The position numbers and the translations under genes are program-made. This document shows positions 1 to 7,380 of a stretch of DNA of 7,380 bases, piece by piece. Under the pieces are notes generated by a model that worked only from the letters and a program-made list of their open reading frames with translations, did no database searches and was not told the DNA's origin. The stretch is from the IMG/VR virus record IMGVR_UViG_2751185969_000006; one strand, given 5' to 3'. Source of the DNA: a virus (lineage: Duplodnaviria; Heunggongvirae; Uroviricota; Caudoviricetes). Each line of letters starts with the position of its first letter. The stretch's first letter is position 1.

Positions 1-140
1 CGCTGGCGATCATGGACGTTAACCAAAACGCGGTGGTCAGTGCGATGGAAAAACATCAGGTGCAATGGCTGATCCACGGACATACCCATCGCCCGGCGGA
101 CTTCCGGTACCGGCAGATGGAAAAGTATCACACCGGATGA
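1..140 (+). CDS. lpxH: 3' end of an LpxH-like (UDP-2,3-diacylglucosamine hydrolase) gene entering from upstream of the window; host-like only to about nt 99, then 13 unrelated codons and a TGA stop
   Basis: Codons starting at nt 3 translate to [32 protein letters not shown], which matches my recollection of the E. coli LpxH C-terminal region including the GHTH metallophosphoesterase motif. From nt 99 the frame reads [13 protein letters not shown] and stops at TGA 138-140, where native LpxH would continue for about 40 more residues. Identification is from memory, not a search. Confidence 0.5.
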
Positions 141-141
141 T

Positions 142-708
142 GTGCGTCCGATGCTCGAGCAGATGGTGACGGATGCCGTGAGTCATATCCCCGTTCCGCG
201 CGACGGTCGTGACTACGATCCGGAAGTTCTGCAGAAGGCGGTTCTGGATGCGGTGAGTGCCCTGCCGGCTCCACAGGACGGGCGTGATGCCACGGCACTG
301 GAAATATTCCCGGCGATTGATGAGCAAAAATCCTTTCCCCGGGGCACGTATGCCACACACCAGGGCGGACTCTGGCGGGCGTATGAAAAAACGCACGGGA
401 TGCGGGGATGGGAATGCCTGGTTGACGGGGTGGCCGATATTGACGTCAGCATGACCGGCGAACGGTCGTTCACTGTGGTGGTCCGGCAGAGCAGTGGCCA
501 GTGTACGGAAAAAACATTTTCCCTGCCGGTGATGCTCTATCGCGGTGTATTCAGAACCGGCGAAACCTACCACCCCGGCGATACGGTGACGTGGGGGGGC
601 TCGTTGTGGCACTGCAACAGCATGACCGGTGATAAACCCGGAGAAGCTCATTCATCAGGCTGGACCCTGGCTGCAAAACGAGGGCGGGATGCAGGAGGTG
701 GAAAGTGA
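142..708 (+). CDS. Phage structural-module protein of unknown function, probably a 5'-truncated remnant; start is uncertain
   Basis: Long + strand ORF directly upstream of, and 4 nt overlapping, the head-tail connector gene. Its frame is open back to nt 73 with no ATG, and neither GTG 142 nor ATG 151 has a Shine-Dalgarno sequence, so the true N-terminus is likely missing. Protein-like composition with a duplicated P-x-P-x-DGRD motif. Family not recognised. Confidence 0.45.
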   Translation: MRPMLEQMVTDAVSHIPVPRDGRDYDPEVLQKAVLDAVSALPAPQDGRDATALEIFPAIDEQKSFPRGTYATHQGGLWRAYEKTHGMRGWECLVDGVADIDVSMTGERSFTVVVRQSSGQCTEKTFSLPVMLYRGVFRTGETYHPGDTVTWGGSLWHCNSMTGDKPGEAHSSGWTLAAKRGRDAGGGK

Positions 709-1031
709 CAGCATTACTGACACTGGAAGAAATCAAGGCTCATCTGCGTGTTGACCATGACGCGGATGATGACATGCTGATGGACAAGGTTCGTCAGGCT
801 ACAGCTGTGCTGCTGGCCTACATTCAGGGCAGCCGGGATAAGGTAATCCGTGAGGACGGTGAACTGATCCCGGGCGAGGCATTAACCCGGATGAAGGGGG
901 CTGCCATGCGCCTGACCGGGATGTTGTACCGGAATCCGGATCTTGCTGAGCGGGAAGACCTCGTGCAGGGGGAACTGCCGTTTTCTGTGTCCGTGCTGAT
1001 TTACGATTTGCGTTGTCCGACGGTGTTATGA
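705..1031 (+). CDS. Head-tail connector protein (gp6-like / Phage_connect_1 type, 108 aa)
   Basis: GTG start at 705 preceded by AGGAGG (693-698) at 6 nt spacing, overlapping the upstream stop (GTGA). Size, acidic N-terminal region and position immediately before the head-closure gene fit HK97 gp6 / SPP1 gp15-type connectors. Stop TGA 1029-1031. Confidence 0.75.
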   Translation: MTALLTLEEIKAHLRVDHDADDDMLMDKVRQATAVLLAYIQGSRDKVIREDGELIPGEALTRMKGAAMRLTGMLYRNPDLAEREDLVQGELPFSVSVLIYDLRCPTVL

Positions 1032-1042
1032 GGAGGGGGGGG

Positions 1043-1393
1043 ATGGCAATATCTGCAGGTCGTCTGACACAGATGATAAGTGTTCTGAACCCGGTGTTAA
1101 CCCGTAATGCTGCCGGAGAAATGACGGAAGAGTGGGTGTCATGCGGGAAAATTCATGCGGATATCCGGGGCAGGAGCAGCCGGGAGCGGATGCAGTCCGG
1201 TGCGGAAATGGCGCAGGCGGAAATCCGCATCTGGGTGCGCGGTCCGTCAGGACGGAAAATCACGGCGGCGTCACGACTGCATGTGCTGAGCGGCCCGTGG
1301 CGTGACCGAATTCTGAATGTTGTCGGGGGGCCGGTGCCGGATGCGACCGGCGGGCGTCTGGAAATTCTCTGTCGGCTGGGAGGGGAAAAATGA
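1043..1393 (+). CDS. Head closure / head-tail joining protein (Phage_H_T_join type, 116 aa)
   Basis: ATG 1043 preceded by AGGAGG (1031-1036) at 6 nt spacing. The upstream in-frame TTG 1013 and ATG 1028 lack an RBS. Size and gene order match SPP1 gp16 / HK97-type head closure proteins. Stop overlaps the next start (ATGA). Confidence 0.7.
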   Translation: MAISAGRLTQMISVLNPVLTRNAAGEMTEEWVSCGKIHADIRGRSSRERMQSGAEMAQAEIRIWVRGPSGRKITAASRLHVLSGPWRDRILNVVGGPVPDATGGRLEILCRLGGEK

Positions 1394-1836
1394 TCGAAAC
1401 CCTGCTGGATTTTTCGGGGCTTGAGGATATCAGTCGCGATTTGCAGCTTCTGAGTGGTGCGGAAAACAACCGGGTGTTGCGTGAGGCAACCCGTGCGGGG
1501 GCGAATGTACTGAAGAACGAAGTGGTGTCACGGGCACCGGTGCGCAGGGGAAAACTGCGCCGCAATGTGGTGGTTCTTTCCCGGCGTTCCCGCGATGGCG
1601 GGATGGAATCCGGTGTGCATATCCGTGGTGTTAATCCGGACACCGGCAACAGTGATAACACCATGAAGGCGGATAATCCCCGCAATGCCTTCTACTGGCG
1701 GTTTGTGGAAATGGGTACCGTGAATATGCCACCACACCCGTTTGTGCGCCCGGCGTTTGATGTGCGCAGTGAACAGGCAGCCCGGGTGGCGATTGCGCGG
1801 ATGAACCGGGCAATTGATGAGGTACTGAGACGATGA
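1390..1836 (+). CDS. Tail completion protein, HK97 gp10 family (148 aa)
   Basis: ATG 1390 overlaps the upstream stop, with a GGGAGGGG SD-like run just upstream. Basic protein with the conserved C-terminal segment typical of HK97 gp10-like tail components (NMPPHPFVRPAFD). Position between head closure and tail terminator. Confidence 0.75.
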   Translation: MIETLLDFSGLEDISRDLQLLSGAENNRVLREATRAGANVLKNEVVSRAPVRRGKLRRNVVVLSRRSRDGGMESGVHIRGVNPDTGNSDNTMKADNPRNAFYWRFVEMGTVNMPPHPFVRPAFDVRSEQAARVAIARMNRAIDEVLRR

Positions 1837-2177
1837 CGGAGACGGATTTGTACCCACATCTGGCGCATCTTGCGGGAGGGCAGGCGTATCCGTATGTGGT
1901 TCCCCTGCAGGATGGCAGACCCTCTGTATCGTTACCGTGGGTGGTTTTCAGCCTGATTTCATCGGTGTCTGCGGACGTGATGGGCGGACAGGCAGAGTCA
2001 TCGGTGTCGGTGCAGATTGACGTTTATGCGGTGACGGTCACACAGGCGCGTCAGATACGTCAGCAGGCCCGTGAGTCCATCATGTCGCTGGCCCCGGAAT
2101 CGGTCAGTGAAATGCAGGACTATATTCCGGAAAACCGCTGTTACCGTGCAACCCTGGAGTTTCAGGTCACGGTGTGA
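1833..2177 (+). CDS. Tail terminator-like protein (DUF3168 / gpU-analogue position, 114 aa)
   Basis: ATG 1833 overlaps the upstream stop (ATGA). It is the last small gene before the major tail protein gene, which is the canonical tail-terminator position in siphovirus operons. Family assignment is by order and size plus weak sequence recollection. Confidence 0.6.
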   Translation: MTETDLYPHLAHLAGGQAYPYVVPLQDGRPSVSLPWVVFSLISSVSADVMGGQAESSVSVQIDVYAVTVTQARQIRQQARESIMSLAPESVSEMQDYIPENRCYRATLEFQVTV

Positions 2178-2206
2178 CTTTTTCTTTTTTTCTACAAAAC
2201 CCATAC

Positions 2207-2227
2207 CCCGCCGCGTGCGGGTTTTTT
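2207..2227 (+). terminator. Intrinsic-terminator-like hairpin plus T-tract between the tail terminator and major tail genes
   Basis: CCCGC (2207-2211) pairs perfectly with GCGGG (2217-2221) around the loop CGCGT, followed by TTTTTT (2222-2227). An A-rich run lies just upstream (2194-2200). It sits 30 nt after the stop at 2177 and before the SD of the major tail gene. Confidence 0.45.
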
Positions 2228-2243
2228 ATTATCAGGAGGCAGA

Positions 2244-2957
2244 ATGTCTGCTTTGTATGAACGCTCACAGCTGACGCAGGTGATGATTTCATCTGCCCCG
2301 GCGACTGCTGAAACTATGGATAAGGCGGAATATCTGCGCCTGGACTGCACCATCAAGGAAGTCCAGTTCACCGCCGGTCAGAAACAGGATATTGATGTGA
2401 CCACGCTCTGCTCCACAGAGCAGGAGAACATCAACGGTCTGGGGGCGTCGTCTGAGATTTCCATGTCGGGTAATTTTTATCTGAATCAGGCCCAGAACGC
2501 CCTGCGTGATGCCTATGACAATGACTCGTTGTATGCGTTTAAGGTGCAGTTTCCGTCCGGTAAGGGCTTTAAGTTCCTGGCGGAAGTGCGTCAGCACACC
2601 TGGTCATCCGGTACCAACGGCGTGGTGGCAGCAACGTTTTCACTGCGTCTGAAAGGCAAACCGGTGTCCTATGTGGTACCGCTGGCGTTTGTTAAAAAGC
2701 CGGAGGCGAAGCTTACCGTGAATACCGGTGCGCTGCTGACAATGTCAGTCAGTGTCAACGGGGGAACGCCGCCTTATAAATACGCCTGGAAGAAGGATGG
2801 TCAGCCGGTCGAGGGACAGACTACTGACACTTTCAGTAAAGCCAATACGCAGTCAGGTGATAAGGGGGCTTATACCTGCATGGTAACGGATTCTGCAGAA
2901 CAGCCGCAGAGAATTACCTCTGACGCGTGCACGGTAACGGTAAATGGCGCAGGTTGA
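2244..2957 (+). CDS. Major tail protein, lambda gpV-like, with C-terminal Ig-like domain (237 aa)
   Basis: ATG 2244 preceded by AGGAGG (2234-2239). The N-terminal part contains YAFKVQFPSGKGFKF, resembling the lambda gpV YKIRFPNG region. The C-terminal ~85 aa (YKYAWKKDGQPV...GAYTCMVTD...CTVTV) has an Ig-like strand pattern. Lies directly upstream of the G/GT chaperone genes. Confidence 0.85.
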   Translation: MSALYERSQLTQVMISSAPATAETMDKAEYLRLDCTIKEVQFTAGQKQDIDVTTLCSTEQENINGLGASSEISMSGNFYLNQAQNALRDAYDNDSLYAFKVQFPSGKGFKFLAEVRQHTWSSGTNGVVAATFSLRLKGKPVSYVVPLAFVKKPEAKLTVNTGALLTMSVSVNGGTPPYKYAWKKDGQPVEGQTTDTFSKANTQSGDKGAYTCMVTDSAEQPQRITSDACTVTVNGAG

Positions 2958-2970
2958 TAAGGATAATCCG

Positions 2971-3345
2971 ATGGCAAAAGATCTGAAAACACTGGCGCTG
3001 GCCAGACTGTCCGGATTTCGTCATAAAACGGTGAAGGTGCCGGAATGGGGGAATGTCAGCGTGGTGCTGCGCGAGCCTTCGGCAGAGGCCTGGTATCTTT
3101 GGCGGGAAGTTCTTAATGGCGATGATGCGGGTGACGATACCCTGTCGGTGGTGGCAAAAACCCGCCGTAACCTGGAGGCGGATGTGACGTTGTTCTGTGA
3201 TGTTCTGTGTGATAAGGACATGAAACGTGTGTTCACCGCAGATGATCGCGAGCAGGTGCTGGCTGTCTATGGTCCGGTGCATGCCCGGTTGCTGCGTCAG
3301 GCACTGGAACTGATCACCGATGCTGAGTCGGCAAGAAAAAAGTAG
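2971..3345 (+). CDS. Tail assembly chaperone (lambda gpG analogue, 124 aa)
   Basis: ATG 2971 preceded by AAGGA (2959-2963) at 7 nt spacing. The alternative ATG 2944 overlaps the major tail gene and lacks an SD. The ORF ends in the slippery heptamer A AAA AAG immediately followed by TAG (3343-3345), the hallmark of G-type chaperone genes. Confidence 0.75.
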   Translation: MAKDLKTLALARLSGFRHKTVKVPEWGNVSVVLREPSAEAWYLWREVLNGDDAGDDTLSVVAKTRRNLEADVTLFCDVLCDKDMKRVFTADDREQVLAVYGPVHARLLRQALELITDAESARKK

Positions 3346-3650
3346 CCCGCCCGGAAATTCGCTTTCTGATGCGACTTGCGCTCCGTCTGGGGCGCACCTT
3401 ATCCGAACTGCGCCACAGTCTGAGTGCGAGCGAGGCGATGATGTGGATGGAGTTCGACAGGGTGTCCCCGCTGGGCGATGAGCGCGGGGATATCCGTAAT
3501 GCGCAGATCGTGAAAGCGGTTTTCGGGGCGCAGGGGATGAATGTTTCACTGAAGGACGCCATGCTCTGCTGGGGCGAGGATGAGGACAAGCCGGAAGCGG
3601 ATCCTTTTGCGGGACTGGAAGACGCGCTGAGCCTTGCTGCACAGTCATAA
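2971..3650 (+). CDS. Tail assembly chaperone frameshift fusion (gpGT analogue), produced by a -1 shift at 3336-3342 (~226 aa)
   Basis: After a -1 slip on A AAA AAG, reading continues from 3342 in frame 3 with no stop (VARPEIRFLMRLALRL...) to TAA 3648-3650. The downstream ORF has no independent RBS or plausible start context. This is the conserved G/GT arrangement of long-tailed phages. Confidence 0.65.
3336..3342 (+). promoter_or_regulatory. Programmed -1 ribosomal frameshift slippery heptamer A AAA AAG
   Basis: In the zero frame the sequence reads aga AAA AAG tag. The heptamer is identical to the classic dnaX-type slippery site and sits at the penultimate codons of the G-like ORF, directly before its stop. 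Confidence 0.7.
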
Positions 3651-3658
3651 ATGATGAG

Positions 3659-3680
3659 AACCGCTGAGGCGGTTTTTTTT
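3659..3680 (+). terminator. Intrinsic-terminator-like hairpin plus T8 tract between the GT and tape measure genes
   Basis: AACCGC (3659-3664) pairs with GCGGTT (3669-3674) around the tetraloop TGAG, with a run of eight T at 3673-3680. It sits 9 nt after the GT stop and about 18 nt before the tape measure start codon. Confidence 0.5.
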
Positions 3681-3697
3681 CGTCCGGAGAAAGGTGA

Positions 3698-6600
3698 ATG
3701 GCGACGTTACGTGAACTGATTATCAAAATTTCGGCAAATTCGCAGTCATTCCAGTCGGAGATCCAGCGGGCTTCCCGCATGGGCAGTGAATATTACCGGA
3801 CCCTGTAGAATGGCGGGCGTCAGGCTGCCGCAGTCGCCCGGGAGCAGCGACGCGCCCTGGCTGAGCTGAACAGCCAGTTGACGGAAATTCGCGGTTCTGC
3901 TGTCGGAGTGGCTGGCGCATTTGCCGGTGCCTTTGCCACCGGACACCTGATTTCACTGGCGGATGAGTGGAGTTCCGTAAATGCCCGTCTAAAACAGGCG
4001 TCGCAGTCATCCGATGAATTTTCGTCATCACAGAAAGTGCTGATGGATATCAGTCAGCGGACAGGTACCGCGTTTTCGGATAATGCGGCCCTGTTTGCCC
4101 GTTCGGCTGCCTCGATGCGTGAATATGGTTACAGTGCTGATGATGTGCTGAAGGTGACGGAGGCCATTTCGACAGGACTGAAACTGTCAGGGGCTGGAGT
4201 TGCGGAATCCGGTTCGGTGATCACCCAGTTCAGCCAGGCACTGGCACAGGGTGTACTGCGTGGCGAAGAATTTAATGCTGTTAACGAAAATGGCGACCGG
4301 GTGATCCGCGCGCTTGCTGCGGGGATGGGGGTGGCCCGTAAAGATCTGAAGGCAATGGCGGATGACGGAAAACTGACAGCGGATAAAGTGGTCCCCGCGT
4401 TAATCAGCCAGCTGGGGATATTACGTGATGAATATGCGGCCATGCCGGAAACGGTTTCCGGTAGTATCACAAAGGTGGAAAACGCCTTTATGGCCTGGGT
4501 GGGCGGTGTGAATGAGGCCAGCGGCTCGACGAAAACGCTCTCCGGCGTGCTGAATGGTGTGGCCGGACATATTGATAATGTGGCCGCGGCGGCGGGCGTG
4601 CTGGTTGCTGTCGGGGTGGCCCGGTACTTTGGCAATATGGCCGCAGGCGTGGGAAAGGCCACCACAGAGCTGATCGCGGCGAAGTCCGGGACGGTTGCCC
4701 TGGCAGCCGCACAGGCAGATGCGTCTGTTCAGGTGCAGCGTAAGGCGGCAGCTGACGCGCTGGCGGCAGAACGTGCCTGGCAACTGGCACAGGCTGAACT
4801 TGCACTGGCCAGAAACACCAGTGCGGAGGCGCTGGCCACACAGAATGCCGTCGCAAAACGCCGGGCCATGATTGTGGCCAATGCCGCACTGGTACAGTCG
4901 AATCAGGCGGTGGCGGCCTCGAGGAAGGCGCTGGAGAATGCCACGTCGGTTACGGGAATGCTGAAAAGTGGCGCGGCATCCCTGCTTTCGCTTGTCGGCG
5001 GGATACCCGGTTTACTGATGCTGGGAGCCGGTGCCTGGTACACGGTGTACCAGAATCAGGAACAGGCCAGGGAGTCCGCCCGTCAGTATGCATCGACGAT
5101 TGATGAAATCCGGGCAAAGGTACCGGGAATGACCCTTCCGGAACTGGCTGATAATGAGGGTAAAACCCGCGAGGCACTGGAAGAGCAGAATCGTCTGATT
5201 GCTGAGCAGGAAAGTAAAGTCCGGGGACTGAAAACACAGATTGCTGACTATCAGCGCTGGCTGCAGGAAAATCCACAGGGTGGTTCAGGTGCGGAGATTA
5301 TAACCCACGGCCTTGCGGAGGCAACCGGCAGGCTGGCGGTCGAGCAGTCACGCCTGACACAGATACAGGAAAAGGCGAAGTCTGTACAGGAAACGCTGGC
5401 GTCACTGGAATACAACCGTGTGGCGAGGATACGTGAGGAGGCGGCAGAGCAGAACAGGGCATACCAGGCATTACTGCAGACGAATGTTCAGCATACGGAA
5501 TTCAACCGTCTGCTGGGGCTGGGGAATGAACTGCTTCAGCAGCGGCAGGGACTGGTGAATGTGCCGTTACGGCTGCCACAGGCCACTCTGGATGATAAAC
5601 AGCAGAGTGCCCTGACAAAAACAGAGCGTGAGCTGGCCCTGTCCAGACTGAAAGGGGAAGAAAAAGAGCGTGTCCGACTGGGGTATGCGGCGGATGACCT
5701 CGGTTTTGTGGGTGATCCGTATCAGGAGGCGAGACAACGTTATATCAGTAATGCCCTGGAAGCCTGGCGCAATAACGAGGCGAATAAAACCAAATCCCGG
5801 GGTGGAAAATCAGAGACGGAAAAAGCGGAAGACAGTTTTTCCCGGCTACTGAAGCAGCAGAAAGAGCAACTGGCACTGGCGGGTCAGAATACAGAGCTGG
5901 CGAAGCTGAAGTACCAGACAGCGCAGGGCGAACTGAAAACCCTGACGGAGATACAGAAGCAGGAACTGCTGCGCAATGCGGCCCTGATTGACCAGCAAAA
6001 AATCCGGGAACAGTTGCGATCCCGGGAAGAGACCCTGAAGAATGATAATGTGGCTGCGCGTGCATCAAATGAAGCCGAACTGCTGGGGTACGGGCAGGGA
6101 GAACGAGCCAGGGAACGCATGCGGGAGTTGCAGCAGATCCGCGACAGCTTCCGCCAGAAGGATGCGGACCTTCAGTCTCAGTATCAGACCGGGGATATCA
6201 GTGAGGATTTTTACAGACAGGCACGGGCACAGAACGCGCAGTATCTGAGCGAACGCCTTAAGGACCAGGCAGCCTTTTATGCCGAATCGGATGCGCAGCG
6301 TGCGGACTGGCAGAAAGGCTTGCAGGAGGGGCTCAGTAACTGGGTGGACAATGCATCCGATTACGCCTCTCAGGCAGCACAGCTGGCAACGGAGGGGATT
6401 TCAGGACTGGTGAATAACATCACGGAGATGCTGAACGGAAACAAAGTGGAATGGCGCAACTGGGCCTCATCCGTACTGCAGGAAATCTCAAAAGTTCTTA
6501 TGAATGCCGCGATTGTCAACGGAATTAAGACGGCGGCAAACGGTATGTCCGGTGCGGGAGGATTTATTGGCAGCATTGGTGACTGGCTGGGCGGTGCGGT

Positions 6601-6964
6601 GGCCAATGCAAAAGGCGGCGTGTATACCTCGGCAAACCTGAGTGCGTACAGCAACAGCATTGTGGACACGCCCACGTACTTTGCGTTTGCAAAAGGGGCC
6701 GGGCTGATGGGGGAAGCCGGACCTGAAGCCATTATGCCCCTGACCCGGGCGGCGGATGGCTCGCTGGGCGTACGCGCGGTGGGCAGTATGAACGGCAGTG
6801 CCGGTCTGGTGTATTCCCCGGTCTACCACATCGCCATTCAGAATGACGGGGCTAACGGACAGATAGGGCCGGAGGCGGCAGGCAGTCTTGTGCAGCTGAT
6901 TGACCAGCGGGTGCAGGCGGTGATGCTGTCCATGCGACGTGACGGAGGAATGCTGAGTGGCTGA
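3698..6964 (+). CDS. Tail tape measure protein (lambda gpH-like C-terminus), interrupted by an in-frame amber codon at 3806-3808; the longest uninterrupted part is 3809-6964
   Basis: ATG 3698 with a GAGAAAGG SD-like sequence upstream. The N-terminus MATLRELIIKISANSQSFQSEIQRASRMGSEYYRTL is the typical start of enterobacterial prophage tape measure proteins. A TAG follows, then the same frame continues as NGGRQAAAVAREQ... for more than 1000 codons. The protein has a long Ala/Gln/Glu-rich helical middle. The C-terminus (IQNDGANGQIGPEAA...MRRDGGMLSG) resembles the lambda gpH C-terminus (INNDGTNGQIGPAA...MRDGGLFSG). Confidence 0.85.
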
Positions 6965-7298
6965 GATAAAAACGCTGCATCTGGTCCCGCGTGAAGGGAT
7001 GCAGGTGAGTGAGAAACCGTCGGTGGTGAGGGTTCGGTTTGGTGACGGTTATGAACAGCGCCGACCGACGGGACTTAATGCCAGACTGAAGACGTTTCAG
7101 GCGGTGTTCCGGGTGACGGATGAGTCAACCCGGCGCTGGCTGGATGAATTTTTATCCTGGCATGGTGGTTACCGTGCCTTTTTGTGGCGACCGCCGAAAC
7201 ATAACCGGACGGTGAGGGTGGTGTGTCGGGAGTGGAGCGTCACGGATAACGCCCGGTACAGTGATTTCAGCTGTACGATTGAGCAGGTGGTGAACTGA
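6957..7298 (+). CDS. Minor tail protein M (lambda gpM-like, 113 aa)
   Basis: GTG 6957 with GGAGG (6944-6948) upstream, overlapping the tape measure stop. VRVRFGDGYEQRRPTGLNARLKT and the C-terminal EQVVN closely parallel lambda gpM (VRKVRFGDGYSQRAPAGLNANLKT ... EFEQVVN). Confidence 0.85.
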   Translation: MAEIKTLHLVPREGMQVSEKPSVVRVRFGDGYEQRRPTGLNARLKTFQAVFRVTDESTRRWLDEFLSWHGGYRAFLWRPPKHNRTVRVVCREWSVTDNARYSDFSCTIEQVVN

Positions 7299-7380
7299 TG
7301 CAGGATATTCACGAAGAAAGTCTGAACGAGTCGGTTAAGTCAGAGCAGTCACCGCGGGTGGTACTCTGGGAAATCGACCT
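7298..7380 (+). CDS. Minor tail protein L (lambda gpL-like), 5' part only; continues beyond the window
   Basis: ATG 7298 overlaps the M stop (TGATG). MQDIHEESLNESVKSEQSPRVVLWEID matches the lambda gpL N-terminus (MQDIRQETLNECTRAEQSARVVLWEID) as I recall it. Confidence 0.85.
   Translation, partial: MQDIHEESLNESVKSEQSPRVVLWEID

Follow-up and report, generated by a model that had tools for sequence, protein, structure and literature searches.

The junction between lpxH and a prophage gene at positions 99/100 of the window, by which we mean the whole stretch of 7,380 nucleotides analysed here, is most likely not a biological feature. It probably arose as an assembly or library artefact, a contig assembled with k = 99 having been linked to lpxH through one or more chimeric library molecules. 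An earlier note on this DNA had proposed either a rearrangement or a misassembly or chimeric construct, and the evidence favours the misassembly or chimera, on grounds that include the arithmetic of the contig ends, the uniqueness of the junction and a one-nucleotide deletion in a run of A.

The first 99 nt of the window (1..99, plus strand) correspond to codons ~168–200 of the 240 codons of lpxH and end with HGHTHRPA, as stated in the earlier note; they are identical to annotated lpxH at 99/99 positions. The identity is 100% with lpxH of 31 complete E. coli genomes (including CFSAN061771) and 95–99% with that of nearly all other complete E. coli genomes. Exactly one copy of this stretch is present in each of the 5,425 complete genomes that carry it. 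The lpxH frame opens at nt 3, the N-terminal 167 codons fall outside the window, and the HGHTH metal-binding motif is present in the translated fragment. The break is located after A200. Beyond it the frame reads 13 foreign residues and stops at TGA (138–140), whereas the native gene encodes 40 more residues, which are thus absent from the protein as written; both points had been made in the earlier note. The window thus does not carry the LpxH frame through to its native end at 240 aa. Full-length structures of LpxH have been solved (for instance PDB 8qjz, with these 240 aa), and the protein is described as belonging to an essential pathway. The lpxH frame, together with its 13 codons of phage DNA and the TGA, forms a chimeric ORF of 42 aa (12..140, plus strand).

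The joint itself (99..100, plus strand) is blunt. Comparison of the window with native lpxH and with the native phage revealed 0 nt of microhomology: native lpxH continues past the break as GGCGG|TACATGAACT, the native phage reads GTCGGAAA|ACTTCC, and no base is shared with lpxH on either side (lpxH ...GGCGG|TACATG vs phage ...GGAAA|ACTTCC, 0 nt in common). A 3-nt homology (CGG) appears only if a further deletion of AAA is assumed. The junction resembles the attL or attR boundary of a prophage in that host DNA abuts phage DNA, but it differs by the lack of an integrase and of an att core repeat, by a break lying within coding sequence on both sides, and by the integration site of a relative, which is at btsS/yehV. 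No integrase was found within the window among either the ORFs or the PHROG matches. We thus rejected an att junction (no integrase, no repeat at the joint), in agreement with the earlier note, as well as an IS-mediated junction (no IS end seen) and an engineered construct (no vector-like sequence seen).

The remainder of the window (nt 100–7380) produced a single collinear alignment to a lambdoid/HK97-like prophage, beginning within the portal C-terminal extension and ending just inside tail gene L. Its identity was 99.8% to AR_0013 and 99.96% to CP049609.1, and the best match, contig MDES01000359.1, exhibited 0 mismatches and one gap (a single A). The latter contig continues upstream into intact phage. 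Phage genes were identified from PHROG profile matches and from the annotation of the relatives; all are on the plus strand. The junction falls, as the earlier note had perceived, in the interior of a phage structural gene, that of the portal C-terminal extension, whose 3′ 609 nt occupy 100..708 (phrog_1289 and phrog_2271; “phage portal protein” in RefSeq). The match to phrog_2271 covers profile positions 675–859 of 859, and the extension measures 407 aa when called alone and is part of a fused portal of 861 aa in some phages. It is followed by genes for a head-tail adaptor, or connector (705..1031; phrog_40 and annotation), a head closure protein (1043..1393; phrog_25 and annotation), an HK97 gp10-like neck or tail completion protein (1390..1836; phrog_5 and annotation), a gp17-like tail terminator (1833..2177; phrog_347 and annotation) and a major tail protein with an Ig-like domain (2244..2957; phrog_158 and Pfam matches). 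Further downstream are the tail assembly chaperones (2971..3650; G-like 2971–3345 and T-like 3369–3650; phrog_344, phrog_337 and annotation), a tape measure gene interrupted by a nonsense codon (3698..6964; Q37*, TAG 3806–3808) and the minor tail protein M (6957..7298; phrog_14). The terminal 99 nt (7282..7380) cover the final 17 nt of gene M and then enter tail gene L, of which the first 83 nt lie in the window.

The single gap corresponds to a run of four A at 121..124 (plus strand) that is a run of five in every relative, this 1-nt deletion being private to the window. Five A were present in 29/29 comparison loci carrying this phage stretch, all of which have phage sequence upstream. A window-derived 35-mer from downstream located 8 viral contigs, all with five A. 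A 34-mer containing the four-A run had no match in metagenome_contigs or viral_contigs, and the best complete-genome matches over nt 100–220 were all at 99.2%, which represents the one gap. The deletion is the sole indel in 7.28 kb and is situated 21 nt beyond the junction; judged by position alone, an indel would fall so near the junction with a chance of ~25/7281 (~0.3%). Frame 1 is open over nt 73–708, as expected from the earlier description of a second frame running into an ORF that ends at 708, but the phage's own frame over 100–120 is frame 2 (LPVPADGK). The phage frame moves from frame 2 to frame 1 because one A is missing at 121–124, so that the deletion and the junction together leave the phage gene both truncated and frameshifted. 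The reading of five A as four, privately to one record, recalls the homopolymer undercalls typical of Ion Torrent sequencing; the window presumably comes from this platform, the Ion PGM having been used for its identical relative. FC21 and CP049609.1 exhibit no homopolymer indels between them in this region. We rejected a noisy assembly with private substitutions, FC21 being identical to the window at every base but one A.

We did not recover the junction in any other record. It was present in 0/5,426 complete E. coli genomes, and exact searches gave 0 matches for a junction 40-mer in genome_contigs and viral_contigs and for a junction 30-mer in metagenome_contigs. None of ten plausible junction-spanning chimeric products occurred among ~15 billion proteins in an exact look-up; the 42-aa chimera, a 45-aa form starting from the contig edge and the modelled full-length chimera of 213 aa were all absent. 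Protein matches of 185, 180 and 151 aa were rejected as chimeras and correspond to ordinary fragments of the normal phage gene; the contigs behind the 185-aa match begin inside that gene.

The positions of the contig ends provided a second line of evidence. In unrelated assemblies, the contigs that cover this phage region all stop at 7281 + k in window-equivalent coordinates: k141_39220 (k = 141, from the contig name) at 7422, k127_1282 (k = 127, also from the name) at 7408, two metagenome scaffolds (k = 55, assumed as the metaSPAdes default) at 7336, and a Logan contig, for which we take k to be 31 with an overlap of k-1, at 7311. The window and the FC21 contig MDES01000359.1 both end at 7380; since 7380 = 7281 + 99, we deduced k = 99 for these two. 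The NCTC genome UFZP01000004.1 contains two prophages (L021 and L022) that are identical across the boundary between genes M and L (window 6857–7380), and this accounts for the break of short-read contigs at window-equivalent 7281. The foreign lpxH segment at the other terminus is 99 nt long, equal to the k fixed from the right end. From the same set of other contigs, unique sequence starts on the left at window-equivalent 72, so that with k = 99 a contig would normally be expected to start in phage sequence, 127 nt before position 100; what the window has there is exactly 99 nt of lpxH. The terminal k-mers of a SPAdes- or MEGAHIT-style contig are those of the graph nodes to which it is attached. 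The coincidences at both ends thus suggest that the window represents a complete contig of a de Bruijn graph, that nt 7282–7380 would be the k-mer overlap of its right end, and that nt 1–99 would be the k-mer overlap tying it to an lpxH node of the assembly graph. On this reading the contig stops at this node, which must then branch, and the native continuation of lpxH should therefore be in the reads. The obvious second continuation of the lpxH 99-mer is native lpxH itself, with T instead of A at position 100.

The best match comes from isolate FC21 (MDES00000000; E. coli ST6199), which belongs to a study on non-serotypeable Shigella (PMC5674244). Its reads were generated from a ligation-based fragment library on an Ion Torrent PGM (400-bp chemistry) and assembled with AssemblerSPAdes. 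The k list of AssemblerSPAdes is not stated in the literature searched. FC22 (MDDJ00000000), a sibling isolate, shares the sequence type of FC21 and differs little from it in gene profile.

The scenario that we favour would start from a complete contig of a de Bruijn graph with a final k of 99, probably produced when SPAdes assembled the Ion Torrent reads of a sibling isolate of FC21, also E. coli ST6199. Nucleotides 1–99 would not be the chromosome physically preceding the prophage; they would be the 99-mer node attaching the contig to lpxH. Two unrelated fragments would most likely have been joined by blunt ligation in the library, yielding one or a few chimeric molecules that created the attachment, and the same read or reads would also bear the homopolymer undercall, from five A to four, 21 nt past the join. 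The native continuation of lpxH would be present in the same read set but assembled into another contig, and LpxH would not be truncated in the organism. In this chain, the origin of the window as a whole contig from that pipeline, the branching of the node and the in vitro origin of the link are what we infer. The distance from the lpxH 99-mer (1–99) to the first error-free phage 99-mer (125–223) is 223 nt, so that a single chimeric read of 400 nt could bridge the two, and a blunt joint without microhomology is what blunt ligation in vitro would give. The window shares several traits with the chimeric links known at the ends of de Bruijn contigs: its foreign part is terminal and measures exactly k nt, its opposite end also stops at a repeat boundary + k, and the remainder matches a clonal relative at every other base. 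The junction was moreover not reproduced in independent assemblies, FC21 having native phage sequence there.

One observation speaks against the artefact. If the intact prophage had been sequenced at normal coverage, the contig should have been split at node 100–198 or 125–223, or the true path should have been preferred, yet the window runs unbroken through both nodes. It follows that the graph either lacked the true upstream path or was dominated here by junction reads. Chimeric links usually form a separate short edge of low coverage that is removed, whereas here the link is fused to an edge of 7.3 kb, which requires unusual read support or, again, a missing true path. On this reasoning, the unbroken contig is easier to reconcile with a real junction than with a rare chimeric read.

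Some information on where such prophages reside is helpful to evaluate a real junction. In AR_0013, the closest relative among complete genomes, the prophage adjoins btsS/yehU (site btsS/yehV) and not lpxH; its order is terminase, capsid, portal, tail genes, J, tail fibre gene and DinI beside btsS. The distance from btsS/yehU to lpxH on the K-12 map is presumably ~1.65 Mb. Related prophages with other boundaries were also observed: in CE10 (L008) the tape measure gene is cut beside btsS/btsR, in L011 a tuf fragment, together with coaA-birA-murB, borders the region that follows tail gene M, and in L014 tail gene M abuts yejM-yejL. These joints could be due to real prophage decay or, in draft records, to assembly problems.

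A genuine structural variant of the sequenced culture, with an intact lpxH retained, is the alternative that we consider most seriously, although we regard it as unlikely. For example, a second copy of part of the chromosome, ending within lpxH, could have been joined by illegitimate recombination to a defective prophage that had already lost its head-gene arm, the nearby 1-nt deletion being then a by-product of repair. Such a variant would explain the unbroken contig, which passes from the lpxH node into 7.3 kb of phage as it would if there were no competing upstream path; it also agrees with the defective state of the prophage (tape measure Q37*) and with the related prophages cut against host genes (CE10 at btsS, L011 at the tuf fragment, L014 at yejM). 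The junction in the window also invites comparison with the joints produced by aberrant excision or illegitimate recombination (lambda gal/bio, decayed cryptic prophages): a break inside a host gene meets one inside a phage late gene, and real truncated relatives of this prophage do exist. It differs in that the host gene is essential and away from the integration site seen in AR_0013, and in that the junction is without microhomology and unique to the record. In E. coli, spontaneous illegitimate recombination typically relies on a few bases of microhomology, and there are 0 at this joint. Other points against a structural variant are that the lpxH region is never duplicated in the 5,425 complete genomes, that the junction occurs in no other record, that in FC21, a clonal relative, the phage gene is intact and carries five A, and that a second, unseen junction would be required. 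A quite improbable possibility is an event restricted to part of the culture, in which a large tandem duplication, or an excised circle, from the prophage to lpxH would supply the joint. The two pieces would be co-oriented on the K-12 map if the prophage were at btsS/yehV as in AR_0013, and lpxH would stay intact, but the coexisting native upstream path should then break the contig within 100–223 and the segment involved would presumably measure about the ~1.65 Mb given above. Considering all its forms, we would give a genuine structural variant with an intact lpxH elsewhere an appreciable but clearly minor chance.

The evidence makes a real junction without a second copy of lpxH very unlikely. 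The deletion or rearrangement envisaged in the earlier note, which would have removed the left arm of the prophage together with the 3′ end of the only lpxH copy and left an LpxH of 213 aa with a foreign tail, is not supported and is the least probable of the readings considered here, even if the sequence as written encodes exactly that. A contig end lying exactly k nt from the junction implies a branching node and thus the presence of the native continuation in the data. lpxH itself is essential in E. coli, as is, by description, its pathway. The prophage and lpxH are not neighbours in AR_0013, and as the two pieces are co-oriented, gene order suggests that a simple deletion would remove the arc containing oriC. 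Close relatives carry the phage gene intact, and the modelled 213-aa product is, as mentioned, absent among ~15 billion proteins.

If the junction is an artefact, it has no biological meaning in itself, and it illustrates how a foreign tag of one k-mer at a contig end can mimic a truncated essential gene or an odd prophage boundary. A practical check is to compare the distance between a junction and the contig end with the k of the assembler. If the junction were real and lpxH present in no other copy, it would bear on the structure-function relationships of LpxH and on LpxH as an antibiotic target: E. coli would survive with an LpxH cut after residue 200 and extended by a phage-derived tail of 13 residues, and either the last 40 residues would be dispensable or another enzyme would cover the step.

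The nonsense codon of the tape measure gene turned out to have a wider distribution than the junction. Q37* results from a change of CAG to TAG at 3806 and splits the gene into pieces of 36 aa and 1028 aa, the downstream piece occupying window 3878–6964. Exact protein look-ups identified the same 36-aa + 1028-aa split in CP049609.1, KE136710.1, two NCTC assemblies and several metagenome contigs (gut), in which the portal-extension gene is intact; Q37* was found in 0/659 RefSeq complete genomes carrying this stretch of the tape measure gene. The occurrence of Q37* across several records therefore indicates that a defective prophage lineage is in circulation. We rejected private decay or manipulation of the sequence as an explanation for Q37*, the lesion being common to the whole lineage.

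Variation was also observed in the portal region of the relatives. The portal C-terminal extension contains a tandem repeat of 162 nt (54 aa) in ~4.3 copies with 94% identity (locus L001, 7450–8144), which ends at window-equivalent ~243. The extension protein is 299, 353 or 407 aa long across genomes, in steps of one repeat unit, and the short-read assembly of FC21 is one unit shorter here than CP049609.1, which could reflect a collapsed repeat. Upstream of the window, a run of G in the portal gene (locus L017, ~2510–2535, compared with L019) is associated with two forms: with G5, the portal (454 aa) and the 407-aa extension are two overlapping ORFs, and with G6 they are a fused ORF of 861 aa. 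The split form is present in most genomes examined and is marked by RefSeq as a frameshifted pseudogene; the run could be a slippery site for programmed frameshifting or a phase-variable site. Finally, an ORF of 204 aa is located on the minus strand at window 37–651, antisense to the junction region and the portal-extension gene, and most likely arose by chance, the coding sequence here being GC-rich.
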